A DNA stretch of 63,754 nucleotides, counting the filler, from Candidatus Fermentibacterota bacterium (GTDB lineage Bacteria > JAFGKV01): assembly GCA_016928395.1 (NCBI GenBank). It is 6 parts of 6 records of this genome, joined end to end, with 100 filler letters (N's around TTAATTAATTAA, not from the genome) between each part and the next. Parts side by side here need not be neighbours in the genome. Positions count along the whole stretch, not along the records: positions 29,249 to 53,221 come from JAFGKV010000292.1; 5 more parts are not named here. One strand, 5' to 3'. Position numbers and translations under genes: made by a program. Positions 27,953 to 48,910 of this stretch are shown piece by piece. The notes under the pieces were generated by a model that was given only the letters and a program-made list of their open reading frames with translations, was not told the origin of the DNA and did no database searches. The number at the start of each line of letters is the position of its first letter. Positions within the stretch are counted from its first letter, which is position 1.

Positions 27953-29148
27953 ATGGACAAGAAACTGAAAACCGGGATTTTGGCTTTGCTTGCTGTGCTT
28001 TGTTTGATGATAGTAGCTTCTTTTGCTTATGCACAGGGTGCTGTTGCTTATTTCGAGGCCACACTAGGCATGGGCGGCTCTTTAGGAGAGTCAGGTCCTC
28101 TCGGCTCTTGCGGTCTGGAGGGAGAGGTTTGTGATGAGACGCTTGCATGCTGTGAAGGCCTTTTCTGCAGTCCAGGCATTGTCTACAGCGCTTTGTATTA
28201 TGACGATGTCGTGAAGCACTGCTGCCCTTCAGGCACTTACTGGGACAATGATGAGAGCGCCTGCGTGCCCTCTCCTGCCTTTTCATGCTCAGACGGCTGG
28301 ACTGAGAATTTCAACTCAGGGATTGATGTGTTTAACGACTGGTTCAGGTATTATGATTCTGTTGACAACTATCAGACTCACACTGTTTACGGGATGCTTT
28401 ACATTGACGGGTTCAAAGAAGGCGACTTTTCTGACTACAACTGGGGAATGGGCGGAGACTATCTCAAGAGCCGATACTATCTCGGAGACGGCAGTGATGA
28501 TGAGGTCTTGGAGTTTGTGTGGAAGATGAGGCTCAACCCAATAGGCTTTGAAGACTTTGGCAAAAGCAACGCGATAATGTACCTCCAGAACGAGGAGGAG
28601 GATTACATCATCAACATCTGGAGGACAGGGCATTTCCCAGGTGATGGACAGCCCCATAACATCGTGATCTTAGAGGGCTACAATACAGGAGTGGGCTGGG
28701 ATGAGCTTTGCGTTGACGGGAACTGCTGTCCCTCATGCATTTTCAGGGACTTGACAATGTACGACACTTACAAGCTTGTGATTGACGTTGCAGAGCAGAA
28801 ATACCAGGTCTATCTCAATGATGTGCTTTTCGACAACTTCAACAACCCAGGCCATCCGACAGTTCATGACTGGCGCTACTACCAAGGCCCTGGAAGATTG
28901 GAGAAGCTCTCTGTTGTCTTCGGAGGAAACACGCTCTTCGAACAGACCCAGAACGTGAGCTTCGATGACTTCAGTGCCAGCGGAGGGACTTGCGCTGACC
29001 TCGACCTCGGACATCGAATCTGCGGAGACGTCAGCGCATCAGGCACAGACCTGCCGTCAGCCTGCGACACAGACCTGACAGACGTTGCTGTTTTCCCGAA
29101 CATGAACTATTACAACTTCTACTGCGTCTATGAAGGAAAGAATTACTC
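27953..29148 (+). CDS. Secreted Cys-rich acidic protein, 3'-truncated, in lower-GC DNA
   Basis: MDKKLK + hydrophobic signal; CC-rich segment followed by a beta-sandwich-like region; runs into the gap. Confidence 0.75.
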
Positions 29149-29248
29149 NNNNNNNNNNNNNNNNNNNNNNNNNNNNNNNNNNNNNNNNNNNNTTAATTAA
29201 TTAANNNNNNNNNNNNNNNNNNNNNNNNNNNNNNNNNNNNNNNNNNNN
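29149..29248. other. Artificial contig-join spacer
   Basis: N run + TTAATTAATTAA + N run. Confidence 0.99.
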
Positions 29249-29306
29249 AACGGCGGTCGAATGCGATCGTACTTGTGAATCCGAGTGCTTAAGCTAGGCA
29301 GCAACT

Positions 29307-31451: not shown

Positions 31452-31629
31452 CCTGCACCCCACCCGGGGACAATCGCCACGCCGTCCAACAGGCCAAACG
31501 TAGAGCGCTCCATCTCTCCCCGCGTAGTACAGTCTCCTTTCCCGGCAGATCCACCGCCACCAGAACCGGTCCGGCAAGAGCTGCGGGAGCCAGAGTGATG
31601 AGCAGGAGCAGGGCAGTCATGGTGCACAT
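31363..31629 (-). pseudogene. Possible remnant of a secreted-protein gene
   Basis: GAGGAG RBS and signal peptide MCTMTALLLLITLAPAALA, then the frame degenerates and overlaps the kinase 3' end. Confidence 0.3.
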
Positions 31630-32260
31630 CAGAAACTCCTCTTCCCTGGGATGAGAGACAATCAACGGAACGACGTCACGTCGTGAGTCCCGCTTCATCA
31701 TCCCGTGAGATCAGGCACCCTCCGTGAACAGCCCTGTTAGCCCAGAAGCACGAGTTCGAGCGGCCAGTGGAGTCAAGGGTGCATCTGGTCAGAGTTGCAT
31801 CCGTTGCGTCAGCATCCGTTCGCAGAGATCTCGACAAGGGAGTCAGCCGGAGTGCATCGGCTCACGAAGGGGCGTGTACTTAGACCGGCTTCGTTCTCCG
31901 ACCCACGCCGAGATGGAATAGACTGCCGACGCGGATGCCCGACGGTATGTCCACATGCGGTCACTGCTGCGCAGTTTTGGGCAGTAGTGCCGTCCGCGGT
32001 GCTCGCCGTCCGGAGAGGAAGAGAGAGTAGGGGAATCGAATCGATCACACTCGAGCCAACTACAGGCTCTATGCCGGATCTTCTCGCCCTCTCATAGATC
32101 TTGACCTCACGAGCTCTGGGCATGAGCCTTGCTGCCCTGTATCTCGTTTGACCGTCGTCTAGGGAACACGCTCTCTGTTGAGTAGCTGTTGCGCCCTTCC
32201 AAGGCGTGATCTGCCGGGCCGAGACCCACGCTCGGCGATCTGCAACATCGGAGTAGGCCC

Positions 32261-34522
32261 GTGTCGCTGCCTCACATGGTTTCTGGATCCGTGCTCCTCG
32301 CGGTCACAATGACCCTTCATGCAGCGCCCCACCGGGAGGTTGACACCCTCGCCCCAGATCCGGTCCTCGCCAGTCCACAGATACGTACGCTGATCGTACG
32401 CAGCGATGAGAATTCCACGGCGCTGGACGTAGAGATCTTGGGTTCGCCCGGGCGACAATGGCCCGCGGAGATCGGCATAGGCCTCGTGGCTGTGGCTCCC
32501 CGTGGCCGGATCATGGCCAGACTTGACGCCGTTGACGCCCACGTTCTCGGGCAGGCTGACGACGTTGCGCGTATCCTCCCGGCAGACTTCCCGGAGGACC
32601 TCGTCCTTGTCGGGCCGCCGGGGATATGGCGGGAGCTGCGAGTCGTGCGCGTCGCAATTCGACCACAGTGGGGCGAAGGTGAGAGCGCGAGAGTCGCGCG
32701 ACGGGTGAGAGTCACCATCATCAATGCCGGCGGTCAGGGCGTAGCCGAACTGGATCATCCTGCCCGGCCTGTCTCGCTGGTGTGGGATCGCCTCTTCCGG
32801 GCCCATGTGCTGAACTACGAGGCGTTTCAGCCTCCCCGGCTCACCATCGGCACGGGCCCACGCTACATCGTGATCTCGCGATCGCGCTTCACGGAGCACA
32901 CACCGGCCTTCGTGGAGTGGAAGACTCGACAAGGATACGGGGTCGAGGTCATCACGCTCGAGGACTTGGGGTATACCGATCCCTTTGACCGCAACGCCAT
33001 CAATGCCACCAAGCGCTGCATTATGGAGGCATATACCTCCTGGGACCCGCCCCTGGAGTTCGTGCTCCTGACGGGTGACATGTACGCCGGGGCGCCCGCC
33101 GGTTCCATCTACAGCAAGCAGTTCACTGACATTCTTGGCTACTATCCCCTGGAGCGCTACTACGATCAGTGGTACGCGTTGGTCGACGGGCCGGACTTGT
33201 TACCCGATATCATGCTCGGCCGATTTCCCGACAGCAATGCCCAACGCATGGGATACCAGCTTGGCAAGACGGTCGGATACGAGATGAGCCCCCACATCGA
33301 AGGAACATGGCAACGCAATTCAGTCATGACCGCCATCCACAGCAACCCAACCCATCCGACCATCCTGACCAAACAGGCCGTCTCCGATAGTCTCGTAGCC
33401 TGGGGCATGACAGTCCACGAATTCTACTGCGGCCAGGCTATCCCTGCCCGCATCATTCCCGCGATCAACCAGGGAGTTGCCTTCTACAACTACCGAGGAG
33501 AGTGGTGCGGAGAGAACGACTGGGGAGGCACCTTCTACCCTAACGACGCCGCGTACATCAGCAATGTGAACAAGTTGGGCGTGTGGACGGCCATAAGCTG
33601 CAGCACCGCGGATTTTGTCTTCAACTACCCCATCAACGCCGAAATTCTCCTGCGATTAGGCCATGACAATCCGGCCGCCCCTCGAGGGGCGGTGGCGGTA
33701 GTGGGCTCCCAGGGCTACACCCACGCCAACTTCAATAACCCCTTGGACTGGGCCTTCTACCACGCCTTTACCCATCAAGACGCCACGCTCTTGGGCGAGG
33801 CCTTCATGGCCTCCAAGATCTACGTCGCATCCGTCACCGCCCCCAGCGACAGCCAGACTACCACTTTGTGCGAGTATACCATCCTTGGCGACCCCTCGCT
33901 GCAGGTGTGGACCGATGTGCCGACGCCGCTTTCCGTTGCCATTGACCCGCCATCAGTGCCCGAAGGGATGACCACCCCGGTGACCCTCTCGGTTACCACC
34001 GACGCTGTTTCGCCGGTCTCCGGCGCCTTGGCCTGCCTCCGGCGCGGGGGGGATGTCTACGTCTACGGGTACACCGATGATTCTGGCGCGGTGACCCTCC
34101 CGGTGATGCCCACGGAGACTGGAACCTCCGGCGTGCCTGTCGACGTCACCATCACTGCTGTCAACAGGATCCCCCACTACGGCACCCTCCCGGTGCTCAC
34201 CAGCAGGCCCGCACCCCCGGGCAATGTGACGGTTGTCATCGACCGTGATGCCCGGCTGAAGATCACCTGGAACCCAGTGCTCTCCGATGAACGAGGTCTT
34301 CCCGTGGTCATAGACCGCTACGAGGTCTCCCTTGATGACGACGCATTCGTCGCGGCAGATCGCCCCGCGGCTTCCGCGGGAACAACGACGGCTATCTCCT
34401 TTGCCACCACCTCGCCAGGCACCTTCGTGCGCGTGGTCGCAGTCTCACGCGAGGGCCGAAGGTCGCACCCAAGTGAACCCGAGGGCGCCGTCTCCCTACC
34501 GCTGGCCATGCCCGTGAGGTAA
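32261..34522 (+). CDS. C25 (gingipain-like) family protein with propeptide and an FnIII-like tail
   Basis: FVEWKTRQGY, FVLLTGD, DQWYALVDG.D.LPDIMLGRFP, NYRG, ISCSTADF, YTILGDPSLQVW. Confidence 0.85.
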   Translation: MSLPHMVSGSVLLAVTMTLHAAPHREVDTLAPDPVLASPQIRTLIVRSDENSTALDVEILGSPGRQWPAEIGIGLVAVAPRGRIMARLDAVDAHVLGQADDVARILPADFPEDLVLVGPPGIWRELRVVRVAIRPQWGEGESARVARRVRVTIINAGGQGVAELDHPARPVSLVWDRLFRAHVLNYEAFQPPRLTIGTGPRYIVISRSRFTEHTPAFVEWKTRQGYGVEVITLEDLGYTDPFDRNAINATKRCIMEAYTSWDPPLEFVLLTGDMYAGAPAGSIYSKQFTDILGYYPLERYYDQWYALVDGPDLLPDIMLGRFPDSNAQRMGYQLGKTVGYEMSPHIEGTWQRNSVMTAIHSNPTHPTILTKQAVSDSLVAWGMTVHEFYCGQAIPARIIPAINQGVAFYNYRGEWCGENDWGGTFYPNDAAYISNVNKLGVWTAISCSTADFVFNYPINAEILLRLGHDNPAAPRGAVAVVGSQGYTHANFNNPLDWAFYHAFTHQDATLLGEAFMASKIYVASVTAPSDSQTTTLCEYTILGDPSLQVWTDVPTPLSVAIDPPSVPEGMTTPVTLSVTTDAVSPVSGALACLRRGGDVYVYGYTDDSGAVTLPVMPTETGTSGVPVDVTITAVNRIPHYGTLPVLTSRPAPPGNVTVVIDRDARLKITWNPVLSDERGLPVVIDRYEVSLDDDAFVAADRPAASAGTTTAISFATTSPGTFVRVVAVSREGRRSHPSEPEGAVSLPLAMPVR

Positions 34523-34525
34523 GGG

Positions 34526-37500
34526 ATGCACCGGGGACACCTGACGAGCTACGGTTTCCGATGCATCGAACCTATCCGGCCCGGCCTTCCCTGCCGACCT
34601 GTCCTCATTCTATCAATGATCTCTGTGTTGCTCGCCGCGGAGGCGGAACCCGCGACCTTCACCGTAACCTCAACCGCCGCGACGGGGGCGGGCTCGCTCC
34701 GCGAAGCAATTACCTTGGCCAATACCGCCACCGGCCTCGATACCGTGGCCTTCAGCATACCGGGGGCCTTACCCACGATCATCAGCCTTACCACGACGCT
34801 CCCGTCCATCACCTCACCGCTCTATCTCGACGGCTATACCCAGCCGGGCTCTGCACCGGCCAACGGGTCATCTCCTGCGATCATCGGTGTGCAGCTCCAG
34901 GGAAGCGCAGGAGGCACGGGCCTCAGCGTGTCCTCAGCAGGGGGCACCGTGCGAGGCCTTGCCATCGGAGGTTTCATCACCGGTGTCTCGATCAACGGTG
35001 CACCGGGAACGCTCATCGAGGGCAATCATATCGGCGTCGATGCCGCGGGCGCGTCGGTCCTGCCCAATGGGGTTGGAATCCGCCTACTTTCCGGCGGGCA
35101 CCAGATAGGAGGGACTCTCCCAGAGTCCCGCAACCTGATATCCGGCAATACCCAGCACGGAATAGACATCCAGACCGGCGACTGGGATCCCGAGCCGGGA
35201 GAGACCAACTCCATCATGGGCAACTACATCGGCGCCGATGCCACGGGTGGAGGCGCCCAGGGAAACGGGGGATGTGGGATCGTGGTGACCCGCGGTGCTG
35301 ATACTTCGATAGGGGGCATCGCTCCCGGTGCAGGGAATGTCATCGCTTTCAATGGAGGACCCGGCGTGTACGTTGCTCACGGTATACGTAACTGCATCCT
35401 CTCCAACGCCATTTTCGACAATGGCGGTCTCGGCATCGACCTCCTGTGGGACTACTGGGATACCGAACCTGATGGCGTGAACCCCAATGATGTCGGCGAC
35501 GGTGATTGGGGGGCCAATGAACTACAGAATTTCCCGGTGCTGACCAGCGCCCAGAGCGCAGGCTCCTCGCTCATCATCACCGGATCGCTGAACAGCCTGC
35601 CCAACGCGGATTACCGCGTAGAATTCTACAGTTCGCCCTCTCCGGATGAGGCAGGCTACGGCGAGGGAAACGCATTCGTATGCGCCACCCAGGTGACCAC
35701 GGATGCTTCGGGCTCGTGCGAGTTCGTGGCCACTTCGGCCCTCTCGCCGGCTCTGGGATCATTCATCTCCGCGACTGCCACCGATGCGCTGAATAACACA
35801 TCGGAGTTCAGCCGTTGCCTTCCGTTTCAGGGCTCAACCCTCGTCACCACCTCCCTGGATTCCGGACCGGGCTCCCTGCGCAACGCCATCGCGACTTCAA
35901 ACCTCACGCCGGGCCTCGATACGATTTCCTTTGGCATCCCCACCGCCGGGGCCCACGTCATTCGCGTCCAGTCTCCTCTTCCCCCACTGGAGGACCGCGT
36001 GGTCATCGACGGGTATACCCAGAACGGTGCCACGGAAGCAACCGCGGAGTCGCCCGCCGCACTCATGATCGAGATCGATGGAAGCCTCTTGGGCGGCAAC
36101 GCCAGCGGACTCACCATCAGGGCCGGCCCGTGCACGATACGGGGGTTGGCTGTGGGAGGATTCCCGTGGTGCGGCATACTCTCGGAACACAGCGATTCCA
36201 GCATCATCGCGGGAAACCATCTGGGAGTGGATGGCACGGGCACGGCATTGCGGGGCAATGGGATCGGGATATACATCCAGGATGGAGCGGGCACCGTGGT
36301 CGGAGGATCCTCTCCGGCGACGAAGAATGTGATAAGTGGGAATGCCCTTGCCGGTCTTATCCTGGCAGGTTCGATGGATAGCGCCGTCGGCAACTATGTG
36401 GGCACCGCGTCCGACGGCACCTCGCCCCTGGGGAATGGCATTGGAGTCATCCTTGGAAAAGACGAGATTCTGGGAGGCGGTGAACCCATCTGCAGAAACG
36501 TGATCGCAAGTAACAACAGCCACGGAGTGGTGGCTGCGCTCTCGGGCAGCGCCGTGACGCACAATTGGATTGGCATGACAATCGGCGGTGGGGCAGTGGG
36601 GAACGGGGGCGTCGGAATCGGTGTCGGGATAGAATGGCTTGATGATACCCTCACCGGGCGACTCAGCCTCAGAGCTCCTTCGGAAGACGGAGTGAGAAAC
36701 ACTATCAGGGAGAACATAATCTGCGGGAGTGCAGGGCTGGGCATCGATCTCTATCCCCCTGGGCCGGGCATCAATGATGCCGGCGATATCGATACCGGCG
36801 CCAATGCGCAGCAGAACTACCCGATTCTCTTGCAGGCACTGGACAACCAGGGTGTGACTGTCCTGTCAGGTGAACTGCAGAGCGCCCCCAACGTGGAATT
36901 CACCATAGACTTCTACTGCAATGACCTACCCGATCCCACCAACCACGGCGAGGGTCTCGTCCCTTTGGGTTCCGCGGCCACACTCACGGATGCCCAGGGC
37001 AACGGCACGGTGTCGCTGCAGGTGCCTTCCGGCCAGCTCCAAGGCCGTTTCGTGTGCTGCACCTCCACCGACCCTGAAGGCAACACCTCGGAGTTCGGGC
37101 CATGTCTGGCGATCGGCGGCTCGGGGGCCGTCACGACCACTGCGGATACCGGTGTGGGTTCTCTCCGGATGGCCATCGCGGCCGCGAATGCCAGCAATGA
37201 CATCTCTACCGTGACCTTTGCGCTGCCGGGCCCCGGGCCGCACACCATCCGGCCGACGTCACCACTTCCCCCGCTCCTGCGGTCAATCACCGTCGATGGC
37301 TACACACAGACGGGCGCACAGGTCGCCACTGACTCTGAACCGGCGATCCTCAAGATCTATGTCGACGGAACCCTGGCAGGAGAGAACGTCGACGGGCTTA
37401 CACTTGCTGGAGAGGCCCCAGTCGTCTCGGGGATCGTGGTGACTGGCTTCTCCGGCTGCGGCGTCCTCATCACCGGCAGCGGGGCTGCGGTGCGCGGATC

Positions 37501-38944
37501 CTGGATCGGTGCTCCCATGCCGTCGATGGTCGCAAACGGCGGCGACGGCATCCGTATCGAAGCGTCAGGTGCCACAGTAGGAGGCATAGACCCCGCCGAT
37601 CGATGCGTGGTCTCGGCCAATCTGGGTGACGGGATTCGGATCTCGGGTACTCAGGCCACGGGAAACATCGTCATAGGGAGCCATATCGGTACCGATCCCT
37701 GGGGTACTTCCGCCCGCCCCAACGGTGCAGCCGGCATTCGCCTATCCGGAGAAGACAATGCTATCGGCAACGGGCGGCCTGATGGCCGCAATGTCATCTC
37801 CGGCAATACCGGTGAGGGAGTAGTGATCGAGAGAGCCGGCAATGTACTCCGGGGCAATTGCATCGGTGTCGACGCCACCGGATGTCGCGCCATGGGCAAT
37901 GCAAGCCACGGGATACTGGTTTCCTCGGCAGACGATGCCGTCATCGGCGGTGATGCGGCCGGTGACGCGAATATCATCTCGGCCAATGGTGGAGCGGGAG
38001 TCAGCATTCGCTACGGCGGTTCGGCGGACAATCGTGTGAGCGGAAACTTCATTGGAACAGATGCTGCCGGTAACCCTGTGGGCAACGTGGCATCGGGTGT
38101 GTCCATCCGAGGCGCCCAGCGCACGACCGTCGGTGGCGCGTCGCCGGGTCTGGGCAATACCATCGCCTTCAACGGCGGCGCGGGCATCGAGGTGGTCACG
38201 GGTTTGGGCAATGCCTTCACGTGCAACTCCATTCATGACAACGTAGGTCTCGGCATCGATCTGGGACCTTCTGGCGTCACGCCCAATGACCCCTTCGACG
38301 TGGACACGGGCGCCAACATGCTGCAGAATTTCCCAGAGCTCGCCGGCGCCCGGTTCGATACGGGCGGTACACTGGCCGTATGGGGCATACTCCGTAGCAC
38401 ACCGTCGGAGGTCTTCACGGTACAGTTCTTCTGGTCTCCCACCGCCGACCCCTCCGGATACGGCGAAGGAGCCCACTGGGCTGGCCAATGCGTAGTGACG
38501 ACGGGCTCAAACGGGCAGGCCGACTTCGATGTCTCCATCCCGATTGACGGTCTTGTTCATGGAGCGACGTTGAGCGCCCTCGCCACCGGCGCTTCGGGCA
38601 ATACCTCGGAGTTTTGCCTGTCCGTGCCGATAGAGGGGCTTCCTGCAACGGCCACCCCCGCGGTGCAGGCCTTCGATCTACGGCAGAACGCACCCAACCC
38701 ATTTTCCAGTGCCACAGCCATAGAGTTCAGCCTGCCTGCCGCAGCGTTCGTGACTGTTGATGTCTTTGATGCCGGCGGCCGGGACATCCGGTGCCTGATC
38801 GCCTCGCCCATGGACACCGGAGCTCATACCGTGACCTGGGATGGAGCCGGGCATGACGGCATGCCGGTCGCACCCGGCCTCTACATATGCCGCCTTCAGG
38901 CCGGGGAACGCCGTGCGACACGGCCGATGGTACTGCTGCGATGA
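34526..38944 (+). CDS. Large secreted beta-helix repeat protein (three CSLREA-like modules) with FlgD-Ig tail
   Basis: Three units starting GSLREAI/GSLRNAI/GSLRMAI with GNxIG, NxISGN, GLGIDL, GANxxQN[FY]P, NTSEF; tail PNPF...WDG..PGLY..PMVLLR. Confidence 0.85.
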   Translation: MHRGHLTSYGFRCIEPIRPGLPCRPVLILSMISVLLAAEAEPATFTVTSTAATGAGSLREAITLANTATGLDTVAFSIPGALPTIISLTTTLPSITSPLYLDGYTQPGSAPANGSSPAIIGVQLQGSAGGTGLSVSSAGGTVRGLAIGGFITGVSINGAPGTLIEGNHIGVDAAGASVLPNGVGIRLLSGGHQIGGTLPESRNLISGNTQHGIDIQTGDWDPEPGETNSIMGNYIGADATGGGAQGNGGCGIVVTRGADTSIGGIAPGAGNVIAFNGGPGVYVAHGIRNCILSNAIFDNGGLGIDLLWDYWDTEPDGVNPNDVGDGDWGANELQNFPVLTSAQSAGSSLIITGSLNSLPNADYRVEFYSSPSPDEAGYGEGNAFVCATQVTTDASGSCEFVATSALSPALGSFISATATDALNNTSEFSRCLPFQGSTLVTTSLDSGPGSLRNAIATSNLTPGLDTISFGIPTAGAHVIRVQSPLPPLEDRVVIDGYTQNGATEATAESPAALMIEIDGSLLGGNASGLTIRAGPCTIRGLAVGGFPWCGILSEHSDSSIIAGNHLGVDGTGTALRGNGIGIYIQDGAGTVVGGSSPATKNVISGNALAGLILAGSMDSAVGNYVGTASDGTSPLGNGIGVILGKDEILGGGEPICRNVIASNNSHGVVAALSGSAVTHNWIGMTIGGGAVGNGGVGIGVGIEWLDDTLTGRLSLRAPSEDGVRNTIRENIICGSAGLGIDLYPPGPGINDAGDIDTGANAQQNYPILLQALDNQGVTVLSGELQSAPNVEFTIDFYCNDLPDPTNHGEGLVPLGSAATLTDAQGNGTVSLQVPSGQLQGRFVCCTSTDPEGNTSEFGPCLAIGGSGAVTTTADTGVGSLRMAIAAANASNDISTVTFALPGPGPHTIRPTSPLPPLLRSITVDGYTQTGAQVATDSEPAILKIYVDGTLAGENVDGLTLAGEAPVVSGIVVTGFSGCGVLITGSGAAVRGSWIGAPMPSMVANGGDGIRIEASGATVGGIDPADRCVVSANLGDGIRISGTQATGNIVIGSHIGTDPWGTSARPNGAAGIRLSGEDNAIGNGRPDGRNVISGNTGEGVVIERAGNVLRGNCIGVDATGCRAMGNASHGILVSSADDAVIGGDAAGDANIISANGGAGVSIRYGGSADNRVSGNFIGTDAAGNPVGNVASGVSIRGAQRTTVGGASPGLGNTIAFNGGAGIEVVTGLGNAFTCNSIHDNVGLGIDLGPSGVTPNDPFDVDTGANMLQNFPELAGARFDTGGTLAVWGILRSTPSEVFTVQFFWSPTADPSGYGEGAHWAGQCVVTTGSNGQADFDVSIPIDGLVHGATLSALATGASGNTSEFCLSVPIEGLPATATPAVQAFDLRQNAPNPFSSATAIEFSLPAAAFVTVDVFDAGGRDIRCLIASPMDTGAHTVTWDGAGHDGMPVAPGLYICRLQAGERRATRPMVLLR

Positions 38945-40602
38945 GAGGACGGCATGTGTTCCCGCATATCCACGCTCCGACTGACCCGCCGACGCCGCCG
39001 ATACGCGGGCGCCTTGAAAGCAGGCTCGTGGCGATCATTCTCGCCTGCACGGCCATGGCCTATGCGGGAGCGTGGTGCGAAACGCCCCCGTACGCCCTGT
39101 ATTCACCCAATGAGCAACAAGACGGACGGTTTGGGTGGTCCATCGCTCCGGTGGACACTGCCGTGGTGGGTATGGCCGGCATCGTGGTCGGAGCGCCCTA
39201 CGAGGAATCCGACGGGGTAGCGGAGGCAGGAATGGCCTATTGTTTTCGAGCCGCAGACGGCCTTCTCCAAAGCGAACTGAGGTCTGACGCACCACAGGTG
39301 CGCGGGCGCTTCGGCTTCGCCGCCGCGAGCATAGGAGATATCGACGGTGATGGCGAGACAGACCTGGCCGTAGGCGCGCCCGGTGAAAACTCGGGGGACT
39401 ACCCCGCCGCGGGCCAGGCATACCTCATCAGCGGTGCATTCGGGACGAGTATCAGAAACCTGGATTCACCCGGAGCGGAACCCGCGGGGTACTTCGGTTG
39501 GAGCCTCCTCGCCTTGGCTGATATCACCGGAGACGGCATCGGCGACATCGCGGTGGGCGCACCCGGCGAGACCCCCGCGCCGTCCCGCTGCAATGTAGGG
39601 CGGGTCTATCTCTTCAGCGGCGCCACAGGCGAGTGTTGTGGCGCACTGGATGCGCCAGTGTCGCTGGCAGACGGTCGATTCGGTGCCGTTATGGCGGGAC
39701 TGCGCGCGGCGGACGGGTCACCCTTGATCGCGTTCGGCCTGCCCACTGCCGGCGACTCTTCCTCGGGGGAAGTGTTTATCATGGGCGTCACCGGTCAGGT
39801 CATCCAATGCCTGGTGCCTCCCTCGCCCGCTGCAGGCGCACGGTTTGGGAGTGCACTGGCACCCTGTCACGACATTGATGGGGATGGATTCCCGGATCTA
39901 CTCATTGGCGCACCCGGTTCCAGTGATCGCGGCCGTGCCTATGCCTTCAGCGGGGCCGCCGGCATCCTATTGACGGAGTTCTCGCCTCCCCCCGATGTGG
40001 GTGGGTTCTACGGCCGCTCGGTGGCGCCCGCGGGCGATATCGATGGTGACGGCTGCGCGGAGATTGCTGTAGGCTATCTGGTGGACGCGCCGGGTGAGGG
40101 ATGGCGGGGCGGCGTGCATGTGGCCCGAACCGGCGGGGAGCATGTGAGAGCGCTCACTGCTCCCGAGGCTTCAGGCAGCAGTTTTGGATGGTCACTCGCC
40201 GCGCTGGGCGATCCCGGTGGTGACGGCCAAGACGATCTCGCCATCGGCGCCTACGGAGCGGCGGGGAGTGCCGGGTTCCATGAGGCGGGGTGTCTATTTG
40301 TCCTGAGCCCCCAATCCGCCCCGTATCGGCCACAGCCCCGGGTAGTGCGTCTTCTGGGGCCATGGCCCAATCCTGCCCGCGATGTGGCCCGCATCCTCGT
40401 ACAAGGCTCCCACGGAGACGAGATACGAGTGACTCTGCGCGATGCGGCCGGCCGCGCAGCTCCTGCATCTGCATGCCGCGTCGAGGGCAAAGGCGATGAC
40501 TACGAACTCCGTCTCTCCCCCACCCTCCCCTCAGGATTGTACTGGCTTTGCGCCTCCTCCGGGCGATGCGTCACCACCAAGCCCTTGCTGGTGATCAGGT
40601 AG
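38941..40602 (+). CDS. FG-GAP / integrin-alpha-like beta-propeller protein with T9SS-like tail
   Basis: Repeated FG.S...DIDGDG..DL.VGAPG; tail PWPNPA...SGLY..KPLLVIR; ATGA overlap at 38941. Confidence 0.88.
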   Translation: MRGRHVFPHIHAPTDPPTPPIRGRLESRLVAIILACTAMAYAGAWCETPPYALYSPNEQQDGRFGWSIAPVDTAVVGMAGIVVGAPYEESDGVAEAGMAYCFRAADGLLQSELRSDAPQVRGRFGFAAASIGDIDGDGETDLAVGAPGENSGDYPAAGQAYLISGAFGTSIRNLDSPGAEPAGYFGWSLLALADITGDGIGDIAVGAPGETPAPSRCNVGRVYLFSGATGECCGALDAPVSLADGRFGAVMAGLRAADGSPLIAFGLPTAGDSSSGEVFIMGVTGQVIQCLVPPSPAAGARFGSALAPCHDIDGDGFPDLLIGAPGSSDRGRAYAFSGAAGILLTEFSPPPDVGGFYGRSVAPAGDIDGDGCAEIAVGYLVDAPGEGWRGGVHVARTGGEHVRALTAPEASGSSFGWSLAALGDPGGDGQDDLAIGAYGAAGSAGFHEAGCLFVLSPQSAPYRPQPRVVRLLGPWPNPARDVARILVQGSHGDEIRVTLRDAAGRAAPASACRVEGKGDDYELRLSPTLPSGLYWLCASSGRCVTTKPLLVIR

Positions 40603-40843
40603 ATCAAGACTCCATCTGGAGGTCAGCCCCCGGCCGGGCCCGGTGTCTTCGCCCACCGTTCCTGTGGCCCTTAGGCCGGTGACGAGCTATCTTGGCTAGG
40701 ATGGCCCAGCGCCATTGTGATGGCGAAGGTTCTTCGGTAATGTGGCGGGCTTCACCCACCCACGGATCCGTAGCCCTTGTCGCGACCCTTGACCATGAAG
40801 AGGCGTCGGGGGATGTCCGGGTACTAACTCTGTAGGAGTCACT

Positions 40844-42649
40844 ATGAGCGAGGAGCGTGTCCTCGTCATCGACGACGATCCGCATGTGCTGCAGGCTATT
40901 CAATACGCATTCGAGCGGGGAGGATTCGAAACGCTGGTCGCCTCGGATGCCGAGCTGGGCCTGGAGATTTTCAGGGATGAACGCCCCAGCCTTGTGATCA
41001 CCGATCTTCTCCTGCCGCATACCGATGGCTTCGAGATTGTCCAGAGCATACGCTCGGATCCGATCGCCCGGAACACGCCGGTTATCATCCTCAGCGCCCG
41101 CACCCAGGAACAGGACAAGCTCCGGGGACTAGAGCTGGGTGCCGACGACTATGTGACCAAGCCCTTCAGCCCTACAGAACTGGTGGCGAAGGCAAGGGCC
41201 GTGCTTCGCCGGGCCACTGCGTATCGCGAACGCCGTCGCGTTCCTGGTGTGGGCGGGCCTTTCGCGGCCGAAGGGCTGGAACGGCTGGCGGGGCTCAGAT
41301 TCGCGGACTATGTTGTCGGAGTCGGCAATCGCTCGGCATTCGAGGCCGCCCGCGCGGCGGCCGAAAGCCCCGGCAACCGGTTCAACCCTCTGTTCCTCTA
41401 TGGCGGCAACGGCCTCGGTAAGACTCACCTGGTGTGCGCCATGGCCAATGAGATTTACGAAGTCAATCCTGGCGCGCGAATCCTGTACGTCAGCTCCGAG
41501 GTATTTAGCACGCAGATCGTCGATGCGTATCGCCAACGTCAGGTCGAGCAGTTCCGGCGGGAATACGTGGGAGCCGATGCCTTGATCGTGGATGACATTC
41601 AGTTCCTGGCGGTGTCGCCCAGCCTGCAAACCGTCGCTGCCACCATCCTGGCTGCCATGCATGAGAACGGCAAGCAAATCGTCATCTGTTCCGACCGGCG
41701 GCCCGAGGAACTCCAGACCATCGCCGCGGAGATCAGTGCGCGATTCGCCCTTGGCCTGGTCGTAGAGATCGACAAGCCTGATGTCAGCCTCAGAACTCGT
41801 ATTCTCCTCCACAAGGCGCGACAAAACGGGTGGCCTCTGCACGAGTCACTTCTTCTCTACTTAGCCAACCACGCCGACTCGGACGTACGCACGCTGGAGG
41901 GGATAGCCAAGCGAATGGTCGCCATGCAGACCTTCGCCCGAATCAAGCCTGACACCGCTCTGATAGACAGGTTGCTGGAGGAGGTAACCCTGCGGGAAGA
42001 GGAGCACGACCGCAGTAATGACGACGACGGAGAACCCGTGCCCGGATCTGAAGCCCGCTTGGCGTCGTTTAACGAGGAGTTCAACAGGGGAGCCATCGTG
42101 CGAGCCCTGGATACCCCTGAAGGTATCGCCCAGCGCACTCCGCGGTCCCATGGAAGACCAGTAGTAGTGCTGGGCAGGTCCGGGCCCTTGGTCATTGACA
42201 CGGTGGAGGCCCTGATTGGACAGAAGGACAGAGTCTTCACCATTCCCGAGGGAGAGCGCTGGGCCTGCATGGCCCATGCCGCCTCCACGCGACCGAAGTG
42301 GATCGTGGTAGGCACCAACCGGTGGAGTCAGGGCGATGAGTTGACGCTGGCGTTGGAGTGCGGCGCCGAGCCATCCTTCGTCGTAGTAATCGATAGTGGG
42401 CATCCCGACGTGCTGGAGGCGAGACGACTCATCCTTTCGATTCCCAGCAGCAGAGGCATGGCCGTGGTCGTGCTGGTGAGCTCCATCACCCAGACCACGT
42501 CGGAAGCGACTCGCCTCACCATAGCCCGCAGCATGAGGCGGCTATTCCGCGTCGGTGAGGACATACCTGTTCTCGCCAGCGGCGTCATTGCTCCAGATGA
42601 AAGTCGCCGGTGGCTGGACGCTGCTCTGGCCCGAAGCCGTCCCCGATAG
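40844..42649 (+). CDS. Receiver domain - DnaA-type AAA+ domain - degenerate small-GTPase-like domain fusion
   Basis: REC: VIDDD, ITDLLLP, IILSA, DDYVTKPF; AAA+: FADYVVG.GN, FNPLFLYGGNGLGKTHL, LIVDDIQFL, SDR, ARF, DVRTLEG; no DnaA domain IV; AGGAG RBS. Confidence 0.85.
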   Translation: MSEERVLVIDDDPHVLQAIQYAFERGGFETLVASDAELGLEIFRDERPSLVITDLLLPHTDGFEIVQSIRSDPIARNTPVIILSARTQEQDKLRGLELGADDYVTKPFSPTELVAKARAVLRRATAYRERRRVPGVGGPFAAEGLERLAGLRFADYVVGVGNRSAFEAARAAAESPGNRFNPLFLYGGNGLGKTHLVCAMANEIYEVNPGARILYVSSEVFSTQIVDAYRQRQVEQFRREYVGADALIVDDIQFLAVSPSLQTVAATILAAMHENGKQIVICSDRRPEELQTIAAEISARFALGLVVEIDKPDVSLRTRILLHKARQNGWPLHESLLLYLANHADSDVRTLEGIAKRMVAMQTFARIKPDTALIDRLLEEVTLREEEHDRSNDDDGEPVPGSEARLASFNEEFNRGAIVRALDTPEGIAQRTPRSHGRPVVVLGRSGPLVIDTVEALIGQKDRVFTIPEGERWACMAHAASTRPKWIVVGTNRWSQGDELTLALECGAEPSFVVVIDSGHPDVLEARRLILSIPSSRGMAVVVLVSSITQTTSEATRLTIARSMRRLFRVGEDIPVLASGVIAPDESRRWLDAALARSRPR

Positions 42650-42781
42650 CGGCATGTTCAGGTACGCGCGCACCTGCGGAAGGAGAACTGCTGCCGGGCA
42701 GTCCATTCTTGAGCACCCTGCCTACGATGCGCCCGGTGCATCGCACGGCTAATCGATGACCTCTTACTACGGGGTGACCGT

Positions 42782-44365
42782 ATGACATCCATCGAAACCA
42801 GAATCACCAGTGTTACCGTGTTCACAGATCGCGCCCGCGTGGTGAGGCAGGGCTCGACAAAGGTGGAGCCGGGGCGACAGAGTATGAGGTTGGGCGTGCT
42901 ACCGCTGGCCTGCGATCCTGAATCCGTGCGGGTGCGTGCCCACGGCACGGCCCACGCAACCCTGCTTGGTGTTGACATCGCCCGCCAGACCTACATCGAG
43001 ACGCCCGCCGAAGACGTGCGTGAACTGGAAAGGGAGATCGAGCTCCTGGCGGCACGTATCGCCGATGTGGACGGTCAGGTCACCCTGTGCAGTGAGGAAC
43101 GTACTGCACTGGCGGCACTTCTCCAGAACACCGAACCGCTGGCCAGAGGTATCGCGTTCGGCAAACTGGCCCCTGATGCCCATATGAACCTTGTGAGCCG
43201 AGTCCGGCAGCGTTGTGCCGAATTGGATGGCGAGACCCGGGATCTGGTCGCCACGAGACGCGAGCTTGATCGAGCCATTCAGAAGCCTCGGATCGAAATT
43301 AAGCGGCTGCAGAGTGCCACCGGGGTTGAACGGTACGTGACATCCATCGACCTGGAGGTCGTCCACGGAGGGGACCTGACGGTCGAGCTGTCGTCGTTGG
43401 TCAAAGGTGCCTCGTGGTCACCGGTGTATGATCTCCGGGTGAGCGAGGGTGGTGAACCGGGTCTGAGCGTGGGGTACATCGGCCAGGTCACGCAGGAGAC
43501 CGGTGAATCGTGGGACGATGTGGAACTGGTACTCTCCACGGCCCGGCCCGCCCGGGCCGCAGCCCTTCCTGAGCTGAAGCCCTGGTATCTTTCGCCTATC
43601 CGGCCCCGGGCGGAGGAGGCGGAACGGTATGACAAGGCTCGCCCAGCAGCGTTCTCAGCGCCAGGGATCGTCACGAGCGCCGAGGTGGAGGAAGGCGCCG
43701 TGGCGGATGACAGGATCGCGGAGAACGCCGTAGCATCCGTGGAATCCACGGGGGCCTTCATCTCCTACCGCGTGGCCGGTACCGTGAGCGTTCCCTCTGA
43801 TGGGTCTCCCCACAAGGCAACCGTTGCCCGCTTCGATCTTTCTCCGAGAATTGACTACCTGGCTACGCCAAAACTGGTGGAAGACGTGTTCCGCCGGGCC
43901 AGAGTCACCAATGAGAGCCCGTATGTCTTCCTAGCCGGCCCGGCCAATCTGTTCTCCGGCGATGACTTCATCGGCCGAACCGCCCTCAAGCATGTCTCAC
44001 CCGGCGGCGACATGGAGCTGTTCCTCGGCGTGTGCGATGCGATCAAGGTGAGGCGTGAACTCAAGAAGCGTGATGTCGACCGCAAAATCATCGGCAATCG
44101 CCGCACCGTGACCTTGGGCTATGAGATCAGAATCGAAAACTCCTTGGCATCCGAGGTCAGCCTCGTGCTGCGTGATCAGCTTCCGGTGCCACGGGACGAG
44201 GAGATCAAAGCAAAGCTGGAGAACGCCGACCCCAAGCCGACGATGACTGATGATCTTGGCATCATGACATGGGAACTGGCGATCCCGGGAGGGAGCACGC
44301 GGGTTGTGACTCTTGAATTCAGCGTCGATCATCCCCGCCAGATGGAGATCCCGGGCCTGCCTTGA
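42782..44365 (+). CDS. DUF4140/DUF4139 (MuiA-like) protein
   Basis: ITSVTVFTDRARVVR, coiled coil, ASWSPVYDLR, QETGESWDDVELVLSTARP, VPSDG, RDQLPV. Confidence 0.88.
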   Translation: MTSIETRITSVTVFTDRARVVRQGSTKVEPGRQSMRLGVLPLACDPESVRVRAHGTAHATLLGVDIARQTYIETPAEDVRELEREIELLAARIADVDGQVTLCSEERTALAALLQNTEPLARGIAFGKLAPDAHMNLVSRVRQRCAELDGETRDLVATRRELDRAIQKPRIEIKRLQSATGVERYVTSIDLEVVHGGDLTVELSSLVKGASWSPVYDLRVSEGGEPGLSVGYIGQVTQETGESWDDVELVLSTARPARAAALPELKPWYLSPIRPRAEEAERYDKARPAAFSAPGIVTSAEVEEGAVADDRIAENAVASVESTGAFISYRVAGTVSVPSDGSPHKATVARFDLSPRIDYLATPKLVEDVFRRARVTNESPYVFLAGPANLFSGDDFIGRTALKHVSPGGDMELFLGVCDAIKVRRELKKRDVDRKIIGNRRTVTLGYEIRIENSLASEVSLVLRDQLPVPRDEEIKAKLENADPKPTMTDDLGIMTWELAIPGGSTRVVTLEFSVDHPRQMEIPGLP

Positions 44366-46072: not shown

Positions 46073-48910
46073 CTACTCGCTGAAGATGGCTTTGGGCCTG
46101 ATGACGCCTGCCCTGATCTGGGTGCGCGGGAACAAGGTCGCGATTCGGCCCTCCAGGCGGGGGAGAAACTCCCGGTACCGCGGGTTCATGCCCACCCGTC
46201 CGAACCCTTCGGTGAGGATCACGGCCAGCGGAAGGTCTTCATCGCCGGTCACGCCCACTGCCAGCTCGCGCCCGGAGAACTCCCGCCAGGTCATGCTATC
46301 CACCGACGGCGCGATGATGCCCCGCGCGCCTTCTTCGACGCATCGTCGCAGGAAAGCGCTGTCCGCGGGCTCCAGTGTCGCCACGATGACGTCGCGGGAG
46401 AATCTGGGGGTTTTTCCGTGCAATTGCAGGACTCCCCAGGTCTCTCGGCCGAATCCGATGGCCCCAGCCAGTACCTCTCCTTCGCCGGCGATAGTGGCAG
46501 CTCGGGTCTGTTCCACACGCTCCACCGTGCCGTAAACCAACGCGCGACACGCCCGCGGTTCCGTGTCGCACTGCATCACCACCGTCCCCTGCTCAAGGTC
46601 AATCGCGGCGATTCTACCGGAGATTGGCGCCCTGACGGCCGGGCGCCCACCGGTGCCGCCCACGATCTCCTGTCCCTCCCAGAGAAACTCTCCCAAGGCG
46701 ACCTTCAGCATGTGGAGAATCCGCTTTGGCCGAGTTCCAAGGATCTTCGCGACGTCGATGGTGACCGGTTCGGTCGTGTGCTCCTGAATCTCCCGCAGGA
46801 TGATGAGACCCCCTTCTTCGATCCGAACCACTCTGCCGCGCACCGGCGATATGCAGAAGAACTCCACCCGCAGCAAAGGTTCCCGACCGCGAAACACACG
46901 CTGACCGACAGCTACCGTATCGCCTTCCTGAACCAGCAATCCTTCGCGAAGAGCCTCCGACGACAGCGTTCGATGATACCCCACCAGTTGAGGGATGTTC
47001 ACTATGAACACCCGGGGCGGGGCCAGCGTGTTTTGGCCCACGACGCGCTCCGGGGTGACACGCTCACCTTCGCTGACCAGAATCTCCCCGTCATAGGGCA
47101 GTTCGCGGACAATGGTGAAGGGCCCCTTTTTCGGAGCGGCCGAAGGCCGAACCAGGCCAAGGGCTGGTCTACGGGGGCTTGTCGGAAACTCCCATGCCTC
47201 CGAGGCAATCAGGGGAGATCCGCAGAATCCAACACCCCGACCGCGGCAGTCGAACAACACGGGAAGGGATGAGTCCAGGACAACATGCCCTCCTTTGCGA
47301 TACAGGGAGATTCCTGGGGCCGGCGTCACCTCCCAGTGCCCCGGCGGCGCCAGCATGACCTCGTTACCACGGAGCCGATAGGTCTTCCCGGATCGGCGAT
47401 CCACCGCCGACACAACGACCCGCGTGGAGTTCATTGCCCCGGTGGGCGCCACTACCCAGGCGATTTCTCTGAGGCACTGGCGTTCGAAAAACTCCAGGGC
47501 ACCCGCTTCATCCCGCGAGGCCAGAATCCCACAATGAGGGCTCCAGAACGAGCCGTCCACGGCGATTTTGGTAACGCCAGTGGGTAAGAATCCATCCTCT
47601 ACGATCCTCAGAACCTCTTTGTCGGAAGCGTGGGAGAAAATGCCGCCGGCCGCAATCACAAGGTCGATATCAGAAATGCGAAATCGTGAGGATGATCCCA
47701 CCGGGGTCAGAGTCTCCTGGAATCGATCAACAGCCGACCGCTTCAGTATCCTCTCCGCCATGCCGATCCGCGCCTCGGAGAACGCCATGATCTTGTGCTG
47801 CTTCCAGGCCTGCGCGATCCCTGCCAGCCCGATTGCCCGCTCGATGGCCTCCTCGGTCTCATCAGAGGGAATGTAGGTGGGATTGAGCATCTTTCCTGCG
47901 GCGTAGTCGCGGAGATCGCCTTCGCTCACCCCGGGAACATGGGGCAGGATCTCGCCTACCCCGGCAGTGGCGATGACATTACAGATGGAGTAGCTCATGC
48001 CGATATTGGCCGCTACGGTTCGCTGGCAACTGCCGCGAATCCAGGAGAACACGTCGGTGGTGGCGCCGCCCATATCGAACATGACGATGTTCTGGCTATG
48101 CCGCCGGGCGTATCGCGTAAGGATTCGCTCCACAGCCAGGGGCGTCGGTATGATATCCGCAGCAACCCAGGGCTTCAGTTGGCCATAGCCCGGGGCTCGC
48201 TCCATCACCGTGTGCATGAAGATGTCGAGAATGGCATCCTTGGCGGGCTGTGGATTCGTCTCGTGCAAGGTGGGTCTGACATTGTCCACTACATGCACCT
48301 CGAAGTGTTCGGCTGTTACTTGCTGCACGTATGCCCGTGCAGCGGCATTGCCGCAGAAGACCAGCGGAATGCGGCCCGAGGTATCGAACTTGGGCCGCGG
48401 GTGTGCCAGGCTCAGAGTCTCGGCAAGCCGCACCAGGTTGGCAATATCCCCGCCATCAACCCCGCCGGCCATGAGAATCAGGTCGGGGCGCAGGTCACGC
48501 ATCACGGCCATGCGTTCCACGGTGGAGAGACGGTCATCCACGGTAAAGGTCCGGAGCACGACGCCGCCCGCCCCCTGGGCTGTGAGTTGCGCGATCTTGC
48601 CTGTGTCGGTTGACGTAAGGCCCACCACCATCATCTGGAGACCGCCCCCGGCCGAACTGGTGGTCAGATACGGAAAGCGAGGATTGCCATGCTCATCGAG
48701 CAGTTCCTCGCCGGTGTGCTCTCCCAGGGCTCGAGCGGCGGCCCGCACTCCCTCGCACACATTCTCCTGGGGCGCCTCCACGGTTGTTGGGACGGTGGCC
48801 GCGCCGCGTACCTCGTATGAGGAGCCGCCCCTCAGCAGCAACCCCTTGGTCGTGGTGCTGCCAATATCGGTGATGAAGACAGCGTGAAAACCGTTACTGG
48901 GCACGCGCAC
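46073..48910 (-). CDS. GlmL/MutL-like (glutamate mutase L family) ASKHA ATPase fused to a C-terminal domain of unknown function
   Basis: TDIGSTTTK, TSSAGGGL, LMAGGVDGG, DMGGATTDVFS, RTVAANIGMSYS; C-terminal ~350 aa with V.EG..V / SPV.G.V barrel-sandwich-like motifs, LTEGFG, TQIRAGVIRP. Confidence 0.8.
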   Translation of the reverse strand: MRVPSNGFHAVFITDIGSTTTKGLLLRGGSSYEVRGAATVPTTVEAPQENVCEGVRAAARALGEHTGEELLDEHGNPRFPYLTTSSAGGGLQMMVVGLTSTDTGKIAQLTAQGAGGVVLRTFTVDDRLSTVERMAVMRDLRPDLILMAGGVDGGDIANLVRLAETLSLAHPRPKFDTSGRIPLVFCGNAAARAYVQQVTAEHFEVHVVDNVRPTLHETNPQPAKDAILDIFMHTVMERAPGYGQLKPWVAADIIPTPLAVERILTRYARRHSQNIVMFDMGGATTDVFSWIRGSCQRTVAANIGMSYSICNVIATAGVGEILPHVPGVSEGDLRDYAAGKMLNPTYIPSDETEEAIERAIGLAGIAQAWKQHKIMAFSEARIGMAERILKRSAVDRFQETLTPVGSSSRFRISDIDLVIAAGGIFSHASDKEVLRIVEDGFLPTGVTKIAVDGSFWSPHCGILASRDEAGALEFFERQCLREIAWVVAPTGAMNSTRVVVSAVDRRSGKTYRLRGNEVMLAPPGHWEVTPAPGISLYRKGGHVVLDSSLPVLFDCRGRGVGFCGSPLIASEAWEFPTSPRRPALGLVRPSAAPKKGPFTIVRELPYDGEILVSEGERVTPERVVGQNTLAPPRVFIVNIPQLVGYHRTLSSEALREGLLVQEGDTVAVGQRVFRGREPLLRVEFFCISPVRGRVVRIEEGGLIILREIQEHTTEPVTIDVAKILGTRPKRILHMLKVALGEFLWEGQEIVGGTGGRPAVRAPISGRIAAIDLEQGTVVMQCDTEPRACRALVYGTVERVEQTRAATIAGEGEVLAGAIGFGRETWGVLQLHGKTPRFSRDVIVATLEPADSAFLRRCVEEGARGIIAPSVDSMTWREFSGRELAVGVTGDEDLPLAVILTEGFGRVGMNPRYREFLPRLEGRIATLFPRTQIRAGVIRPKAIFSE

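Follow-up and report, generated by a model that had tools for sequence, protein, structure and literature searches.

An open reading frame at positions 40844–42649 (+) in DNA of a Candidatus Fermentibacterota bacterium (GenBank assembly GCA_016928395.1, record JAFGKV010000292.1) starts with ATG, is open throughout and encodes a protein of 601 amino acids (aa). The whole stretch of DNA analysed, termed the window, is 63,754 nt in length. The protein consists of three domains: a receiver (REC), a DnaA domain III AAA+ core, and a C-terminal fold resembling a G domain. It appears to be a genuine response regulator whose output would be a neofunctionalised DnaA-type ATP switch together with a protein-binding pseudo-GTPase, and not a DNA-binding domain; confidence and doubt in this interpretation are about evenly balanced. 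If so, a DnaA ATP module has been freed of its DNA-binding and helicase-loading domains, subordinated to a phospho-receiver and, through a flexible tether, linked to a bacterial pseudo-GTPase.

Pfam searches match Response_reg to aa positions 6–117 (E-value = 1.6e-27) and Bac_DnaA to positions 152–308 (E-value = 2.5e-49). DnaA_N (domain I) and Bac_DnaA_C (domain IV) were not found in the 601-aa protein at an E-value of 0.01 or less. This agrees with a preliminary description of the locus, made from the nucleotide sequence, which proposed a receiver fused to a DnaA AAA+ core lacking DnaA domains I and IV. The motifs named in it are all present: D10/D11/D12, D54, S84, K106-P107, K193, D250/D251, D284, R300 and R349. 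Its two-domain picture is correct for the REC and AAA+ parts, but a third conserved domain at aa positions ~402–597 was overlooked.

A first protein search yielded 44 full-length relatives (clusters at 90% identity) of 595–665 aa, with a query coverage of 98%–100% and an identity of 41%–84%. All 44 carry Response_reg and Bac_DnaA, and their sources are NCBI, JGI, ENA and Logan assemblies. The family alignment is colinear, and each domain contains invariant residues, as does the linker from REC to AAA+ (P139-F140). An AlphaFold2 model of the full-length protein, with the 44 homologues as input, has a mean predicted local distance difference test value (pLDDT) of 85.8 and a predicted template modelling score (pTM) of 0.69. 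Motif positions were mapped by alignment to E. coli DnaA, and the residue numbers were checked against the letters of its sequence. The features are as follows; fractions refer to the 44 family members.

40844–42649 (+): whole open reading frame, 601 aa; REC, DnaA domain III and G-domain-like C-terminal domain (Pfam, NCBIfam, alignment, model)
40844–41218 (+): receiver domain of the OmpR/PhoB type, aa 1–125, with helix alpha5 extending to ~131 (Pfam, NCBIfam, Foldseek)
41003–41005 (+): codon of D54, predicted phospho-acceptor; D in 43/44, E in 1
41219–41290 (+): linker from REC to AAA+, aa 126–149; P139-F140 ("GPF") in 44/44; pLDDT 58–78
41291–42001 (+): DnaA-type AAA+ core (domain IIIa and lid), aa 150–386 (Pfam, NCBIfam, structure, alignment)
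41402–41425 (+): Walker A, GGNGLGKT, aa 187–194; K193 in 44/44; the sole P-loop in each of the 44 proteins
41591–41596 (+): Walker B, D250-D251; 44/44
41741–41743 (+): R300, at the position of the E. coli DnaA arginine (Arg) finger R285; R in 7/44 and in 20/20 canonical DnaA
41888–41890 (+): sensor II R349 (E. coli R334); 44/44
42002–42046 (+): acidic disordered linker of variable length, aa 387–401; pLDDT below 50 for aa 387–400
42047–42634 (+): C-terminal domain, aa 402–597, Ras/Arf-like G-domain fold without P-loop or NKxD (model, Foldseek, VIA-align)

The aligned stretch at aa 387–417, which includes the first helix of the C-terminal domain, is 18–61 residues long across the family and has a median isoelectric point (pI) of 4.4.

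The DnaA-type AAA+ core

In sequence comparisons the AAA+ core is a DnaA-type one, far closer to DnaA than to Hda. The NCBIfam DnaA model TIGR00362 aligns aa positions 151–386 with model positions 108–342 of 437, i.e. domain III and the lid only, and its score (247.6 bits) is below the equivalog cut-off for full-length DnaA (343.9). The Hda model TIGR03420 gives 79.5 bits versus a cut-off of 194.8. The closest solved relative is domain III of B. subtilis DnaA (8bv3, E-value = 2.4e-52), and further matches are to DnaA of Thermotoga (E-value = 1.7e-43) and Aquifex (E-value = 6.9e-33); Hda-like structures reach only 1.4e-5. The modelled AAA+ part superimposes on 8bv3 with a template modelling score (TM) of 0.89 and a root mean square deviation of 2.1 Å. 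It displays the initiator-type paired helices after strand beta2, at positions 218–230 and 234–242.

The functional residues of E. coli DnaA serve as landmarks. According to the review PMC5742627, R285 is the Arg finger; R285, R281, R227, L290 and K243 are needed for the interaction between one domain III and another; V211 and R245 bind single-stranded DNA; and R334 is sensor 2. The corresponding positions were counted in the 44 family members and in 20 canonical DnaA sequences (E. coli numbering):

K178, D235, D236, D269 and R334: 44/44 each in the family; 20/20 each in canonical DnaA
R285 (Arg finger): R in 7, G in 17, A in 9, S in 5, E in 3 and others in 3; 20/20 in canonical DnaA
R281: 0/44 (E in 38, G in 6); 20/20 in canonical DnaA
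R227: 0/44 (hydrophobic or Thr in 44/44); 20/20 in canonical DnaA
K243: 0/44 (S in 44); 20/20 in canonical DnaA
L290 (AID-2): 38/44; 19/20 in canonical DnaA

The nucleotide site is fully conserved: K193, D250, D251, D284 and R349 are each found in 44/44. Given the invariance of both Walker motifs and of both sensors (I and II), the module is expected still to bind ATP and probably hydrolyses it.

The Arg finger seen in the preliminary description exists in this protein as R300, but only seven of the 44 members have R at that position. Five of the seven, namely this protein and the four relatives nearest to it, form one subclade. Ala occupies the position in the lineages that branch first within the family in the quick tree (see below). 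To judge from these residues, an Arg finger of the DnaA or Hda style is not available to most family members. The mechanism that had been based on it, either an ATP-dependent filament or a stimulation of hydrolysis as by Hda, is at odds with the family, where R285 is kept in 7/44 and R281, R227 and K243 in none.

A comparison across the whole of domain III, with 21 canonical DnaA sequences, shows 48 positions conserved identically in both groups, including those of Walker A and B and of sensors I and II. At 22 positions with a conservation of 90% or more in canonical DnaA, another residue is fixed in at least 80% of the family, and 15 positions, H136 among them, become variable. The interface changes are themselves conserved (K243 to S in 44/44, R281 to E in 38/44), which argues for a new function and not decay. 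As read from the alignment, the pattern is that of a paralogue with a new, constrained function, with the nucleotide pocket intact and the outgoing oligomerisation face rewritten. Such a protein, with the ATP face kept and the Arg-finger face rewritten, is a natural experiment on the parts of domain III that matter for filament building.

The lack of domain I, domain IV and K243 argues that the protein is not a replication initiator. The Hda-type clamp motif (QL[SDN]LF or QLxLx[LFIM]) is present in 0/44 family proteins. A complex prediction for two copies of aa 147–601 with ATP gave a score of 0.00, which is evidence neither for nor against self-association.

The receiver domain

The receiver residues are conserved across the family: D10, S/T84 and Y103 in 44/44, and D11, D54 and K106 in 43/44. 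The intact receiver reported in the preliminary description is thus borne out at its acceptor Asp, its Lys and its Tyr. The best NCBIfam receiver matches are PhoB, CseB, CreB and MtrA, with YycF also among the closest models, and Foldseek aligns the receiver model with the receivers of VicR, YycF and PhoB at TM 0.95–0.97. By fold and residue criteria the domain is a genuine two-component receiver and looks phosphorylatable.

One related protein, P0047, has the same AAA+ core and C-terminal domain; in place of the receiver it displays a hydrophobic N-terminal segment resembling a membrane anchor, and a disordered linker. This replacement suggests that the receiver is not obligatory for the core module.

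The C-terminal domain

Modelled alone from a 55-row alignment, aa positions ~402–597 give a pLDDT of 95.3 and a pTM of 0.92. The domain has no Pfam or NCBIfam match, and a search of PDB sequences gave no significant match (the sole match was Tsr1, E-value = 0.36). By structure, the best PDB matches in Foldseek are EngB/YsxC, Nog1, Ras, Arf and MglA (E-values from 2.8e-5, TM ~0.5). An exhaustive VIA-align pass over 48,161 chains listed 50 matches, all of them G-domain or G-domain-like (Z = 8.2–10.3; aligned length 119–172 residues). Sar1, Arf, Ras and Rheb come first among the matches listed, and the pG1 pseudo-GTPase domain of p190RhoGAP-B is also present (Z = 8.4). A protein atlas searched by features gave G-domain clusters at 0.87–0.88, values too low to be more than a lead.

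The motifs of nucleotide binding were looked for in the C-terminal domain. GxxxxGK[ST] is absent from it, and the single P-loop in each of the 44 proteins is the Walker A motif of the AAA+ core. L449/V450 occupy the position of the Walker A Lys with Leu/Val. NKxD within the domain is found in 0/44; incidental [NT]KxD sequences occur outside it in 2/44, in the AAA+ core of one protein and the variable linker of the other. Since the model has a G fold without P-loop or NKxD, the domain is read as a Ras/Arf-like pseudo-GTPase.

The domain is the only unique part of the family. A HMMER pass over 1.84 billion representative proteins found it in 14 only, 12 of which are readable as family members or fragments, and no other protein context was seen among the 14. 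The first protein search had already returned five of them, as full-length or partial members. The complete receiver and DnaA architecture is found in P0122; P0125 and P0126 carry the tail of the DnaA domain. Three have no Pfam match: P0121 is barely more than the C-terminal domain, P0124 aligns through the AAA+ lid and the C-terminal domain, and P0129 is a diverged fragment that by eye has the same two parts. P0123 and P0127 are short fragments with little beyond the domain, and P0128 has a short unaligned tail after it. The domain as a single query in a metagenome scan found no relative, and it was not found in the 301 Gemmatimonadota genomes searched. Its pI is 8.9 in this protein, with a family median of 6.7 and a range of 4.6–10.5.

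The family, its phylogeny and the integrity of the gene

Six family members have organism labels: Candidatus Eisenbacteria (P0004, P0008, P0024) and Candidatus Fermentibacteria (P0006, P0025, P0027). NCBI names the proteins "DnaA/Hda family protein" or "response regulator". A full-text search of a limited set of papers found no publication on a receiver–DnaA fusion. The family is small and uncharacterised, and public annotation labels its proteins only generically.

A degenerate DNA pattern for DDIQFL[AG][IVM]SxS[LM]Q detected 7 loci in metagenomes. In a scan of a genome collection with the family alignment, 79 of the 80 matches listed are unrelated regulators that share the generic receiver motif; the remaining match (34% identity) covers the AAA+ core only and is uninformative on the spread of the family.

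A quick tree of 152 rows (IQ-TREE, LG+G4, Shimodaira–Hasegawa-like approximate likelihood ratio test, SH-aLRT) places the 48 family rows in one clade (support 100, branch length 0.93) beside canonical DnaA, with E. coli Hda on a branch of 2.71 near the DnaC root. In a mixture-model tree of 49 rows, a branch with 100/100 support and a length of 1.14 divides the family from canonical DnaA, Hda and the tandem proteins described below; the DnaC outgroup (branch length 10) attaches on the side of the family. The trees contain one Hda and one DnaC sequence, both single long branches, by which the root and the position of Hda are not fixed. The sequence evidence leads to the conclusion that the family branched off from DnaA-type domain III as a separate, monophyletic group. 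A grouping of the AAA+ domain outside of DnaA/Hda, named beforehand as the result that would tell against the DnaA-like reading, is not what similarity indicates, while the order of events is beyond what these trees can settle. In the quick tree P0100 comes out as sister to the family, with weak support. Among the 120 relatives of P0100 listed, the eight with a named source are all Clostridia DnaA, which is uninformative on origin.

A chimeric join between the domains had been raised as a possibility. It is ruled out by the 44 clusters with the same colinear architecture and by an independent Logan contig that spans positions 41143–42900 with 0 differences and no joints. Logan contigs break at 41125–41173 within the receiver, where contigs of other regulators pile up on the conserved motif (depth up to 3578).

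Two observations concern family members and this gene individually. P0036 and P0014, about 51% identical, are on records (loci L083 and L086) that share one accession prefix, and one assembly may carry two paralogues of the family. A 173-base contig from an RNA library, which belongs to the same study as the probable source sample, is identical (0 differences) to positions 42517–42689, from the 3′ end of the gene into the intergenic region; this may be DNA carry-over and does not imply transcription.

Gene neighbourhoods of the family

Flanking sequence can be read on one or both sides at six distinct loci: the window, L081, L082 (identical to L084), L083, L086 and L087. Three of the six (L081, L086 and L087) have a histidine kinase gene immediately upstream of the regulator, in the same orientation, and a cyclic amidohydrolase gene that starts within a few bases of the regulator stop codon; in L086 the GTG start of the amidohydrolase overlaps the TGA stop. 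The three kinases are 60%–75% identical to one another; the L081 amidohydrolase shares 41% identity with its L086 counterpart and 46% with that of L087. The regulator of L081 is only 47% identical to those of L086 and L087 and belongs to a different clade of the family, with the same arrangement. The amidohydrolase best matches the dihydropyrimidinase/hydantoinase model TIGR02033 (319.7 bits versus a cut-off of 393.25), then allantoinase and dihydroorotase, and by eye its metal-ligand motifs are kept. The L081 kinase (2969–4162 (-) of that locus) is soluble, having no 19-residue window with a mean Kyte–Doolittle value above 1.6, and its first ~150 residues look by eye like a receiver-like alpha/beta domain.

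The other loci differ from these. L082/L084 has htpG upstream and a convergent hybrid kinase downstream. The only readable neighbour of L083 is an upstream gene similar to DAHP synthase. In the window, the upstream neighbour is an FG-GAP protein whose match to a secretion sorting tail is weak and sub-threshold (E-value = 0.0089), and the downstream neighbour is a MuiA-family (DUF4139/DUF4140) protein.

Replication genes (dnaA, dnaN and others) are not found near the gene in the window or in the other five loci. The preliminary description had likewise seen no dnaN neighbour and no cluster of DnaA boxes, and both statements hold: the best tblastn match to dnaN in the 63.7-kb window has an E-value of 1.4, and TTATCCACA (at most 1 mismatch) gives 6 scattered matches versus 5.88 expected by chance. 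A tblastn search with E. coli domain IV found no DnaA domain IV in the window. A promoter and terminator scan of positions 40300–43000 found nothing, and PADLOC gave weak P-loop-level matches only, with no assignment to a defence system.

Proposed function and alternative explanations

Response regulators with outputs that do not bind DNA show that signals can be wired straight into cell machinery, and in receivers of the OmpR/PhoB class the alpha4-beta5-alpha5 face changes and dimerisation follows. A signaling path may be proposed for the present protein on this pattern. A histidine kinase would phosphorylate D54, as the receiver chemistry and the kinase genes that abut orthologues suggest. 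The receiver, by its likeness to the OmpR/PhoB type, would then change its alpha4-beta5-alpha5 face and dimerise. By analogy with NtrC-type regulators, this change may gate the nucleotide state of the AAA+ module or its self-association. The pseudo-GTPase domain, without canonical nucleotide binding, could be the docking surface for a partner. The phrase "signal-gated DnaA-like ATP switch" in the preliminary description is a fair one for a protein with an intact receiver, a DnaA-type core and an abutting kinase in 3/6 loci.

Several points weigh against this proposal. Dimerisation of the receiver and its coupling to the AAA+ core are drawn from likeness to other regulators. In the window no kinase abuts the gene; the nearest is a tetratricopeptide repeat (TPR) kinase 9.4 kb upstream (29307–31451), which is 27% identical to the linked kinases and not orthologous to them. 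L290 (AID-2) is kept in 38/44 members. The subclade of the present protein keeps Arg at the Arg-finger position, and a DnaA-like trans-acting contact is therefore possible there.

The last of these points bears on an explanation in which the regulator is directed at DnaA: the phosphorylated protein would dock on the AAA+ domain of DnaA and either use its Arg finger to trigger hydrolysis of DnaA-bound ATP, as Hda does, or act on DnaA oligomers as a cap or poison. Paralogues of DnaA, Hda among them, have a central part in replication control, and a protein that acts on DnaA in this way would open a new route from environmental sensing to replication initiation. The core is closest to DnaA itself (247.6 bits to TIGR00362; 8bv3, E-value = 2.4e-52), its ATP-site face is fully conserved, and R300 stands at the Arg-finger position in this protein. 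However, with the Arg finger kept in 7/44 only, an Hda-like trigger of hydrolysis cannot be the function of the family. Also against the Hda-like link to replication in the preliminary description are the absence of the clamp-binding motif (0/44) and of any linked replication gene at the window or the five other readable loci; the score to the Hda model is far below its cut-off, and the conserved neighbours are a kinase and an amidohydrolase. The explanation as a whole is considered unlikely. A particular form of it is a phosphorylation-gated, one-sided cap or decoy, which would dock at the end of a DnaA filament and stop its growth, since the ATP-bound accepting face is complete while the outgoing face (R285, R281, R227, K243) is replaced. 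The remodelled face is the Arg-finger face, as would be expected of such a cap. This form, which is decidedly improbable, would connect a two-component system directly to the initiation of replication, in a manner unlike that of Hda, and the pseudo-GTPase domain would then anchor or localise the complex. If the protein does not act on DnaA, the initiator AAA+ fold would be reusable as a signaling switch.

The conserved neighbours suggest another role, namely that of a regulator or partner of the cyclic amidohydrolase (hydantoinase, dihydropyrimidinase, allantoinase or dihydroorotase-like). The operon would control N-heterocycle or pyrimidine metabolism, with the ATP site and the pseudo-GTPase acting directly on the enzyme. 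The three-gene arrangement, with overlapping or nearly abutting codons, recurs in two distant clades (L081, L086 and L087), and the enzyme has both its 319.7-bit match to TIGR02033 and its metal-ligand motifs. However, that score is below the family cut-off, the arrangement is absent from the window and L082/L084, the upstream neighbour in L083 is not a kinase, no homologue of the enzyme is present in the 63.7-kb window, and a neighbourhood is by itself no proof of binding. This role is rather unlikely. A transcription factor, or another DNA-binding regulator in which the C-terminal domain has taken over the DNA-binding role of DnaA domain IV, would suit the OmpR/PhoB-type receiver, a class that consists mostly of transcription factors, and the C-terminal pI of 8.9 in this protein. 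It is very improbable in view of the G-domain fold, the family median pI of 6.7 (4.6–10.5) and the absence of helix-turn-helix or winged-helix domains in Pfam and NCBIfam searches. An artefact (chimeric assembly, pseudogene or dnaA copy in decay) has a negligible chance and is refuted: the break in the Logan contigs within the receiver is a pile-up of other regulators' contigs on a conserved motif, 44 independent clusters share the colinear architecture and invariant linker residues, the frame is open, the changed positions are conserved and not random, and both structure models are confident. The response regulator with a DnaA-type switch and a pseudo-GTPase is accordingly kept as the working interpretation, at the even balance stated above.

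Comparison with known systems

The family shares with DnaA domain III the AAA+ core with initiator paired helices, the 48 conserved positions and the close superposition on 8bv3. It differs in lacking DnaA domains I, II and IV, in place of which there are the receiver and the pseudo-GTPase, in the replacement of K243, R281 and R227 in 44/44 and of R285 in 37/44, in the variable H136, and in a score below the equivalog cut-off. Hda/HdaA is also a DnaA-related AAA+ protein without the DnaA-box-binding domain. However, Hda is short and essentially a single domain (233 aa in E. coli) with the N-terminal clamp motif QLSLPL, and its Arg finger is essential, whereas the family has no clamp motif (0/44) and mostly no Arg finger.

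Regulators of the NtrC/DctD type likewise have an N-terminal receiver fused to an AAA+ ATPase, and in them phosphorylation controls AAA+ assembly. Foldseek aligns the REC and AAA+ part with NtrX, NtrC1, NtrC4 and LuxO. Unlike these regulators, the family has an AAA+ core of the initiator clade and not of the sigma54-activator type (no Pfam match to Sigma54_activat in this protein at an E-value of 0.01 or less), a receiver of the OmpR/PhoB type and no DNA-binding domain. The pseudo-GTPases p190RhoGAP pG1 and Tsr1 also have a G-domain fold without nucleotide-binding motifs; there is no detectable sequence relationship to them, and the family domain is bacterial and fused to an AAA+ core.

A group of tandem proteins from Gemmatimonadota (P0048–P0077, P0113) resembles the family in being DnaA domain III paralogues without domain IV and in the name "DnaA/Hda family protein". 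They differ in having two AAA+ cores per chain and no receiver, form separate clades in both trees, and are not among the matches of the C-terminal domain search. These proteins are ~590–715 aa in length and are labelled Gemmatimonadaceae or Gemmatimonadota. The eight that were scanned with Pfam all have two Bac_DnaA stretches, with no domain IV match and no receiver. A Longimicrobiales genome (G001, loci L092/L093) has a 766-aa frame with two Bac_DnaA matches and a separate dnaA-type frame of 496 aa. This is a parallel only: in a Gemmatimonadota genome a dnaA-type frame of canonical length is present beside a different, tandem paralogue that has DnaA domain III only.

Other genes in the window

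The genes at positions 29307–40602, all on the (+) strand, encode the cytoplasmic TPR histidine kinase, a Peptidase_C25 protein, a beta-helix protein and the FG-GAP protein. The best NCBIfam match of the kinase is FimS of Porphyromonas, below the cut-off. The Peptidase_C25 protein is of the gingipain type, the beta-helix protein (1472 aa) has a FlgD-Ig tail, and the sorting tail match of the FG-GAP protein is of the Por secretion type. This gene run looks like a cluster for secreted or surface proteins.

The 945-aa protein encoded at 46073–48910 (-) contains a complete MutL domain of the glutamate-mutase type (PF13941, E-value = 1.5e-88) and, after it, a long C-terminal extension with weak matches to a barrel-sandwich hybrid. 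An 822-aa protein encoded at 13294–15762 (+) is a fusion of a CotH kinase domain with lamin-tail domains and a FlgD-Ig tail. The G+C content drops to 0.50 at positions 28001–30000, compared with ~0.62–0.66 elsewhere in the window, and this dip covers an open reading frame without a Pfam match (27953–29200) and the start of the TPR kinase gene.

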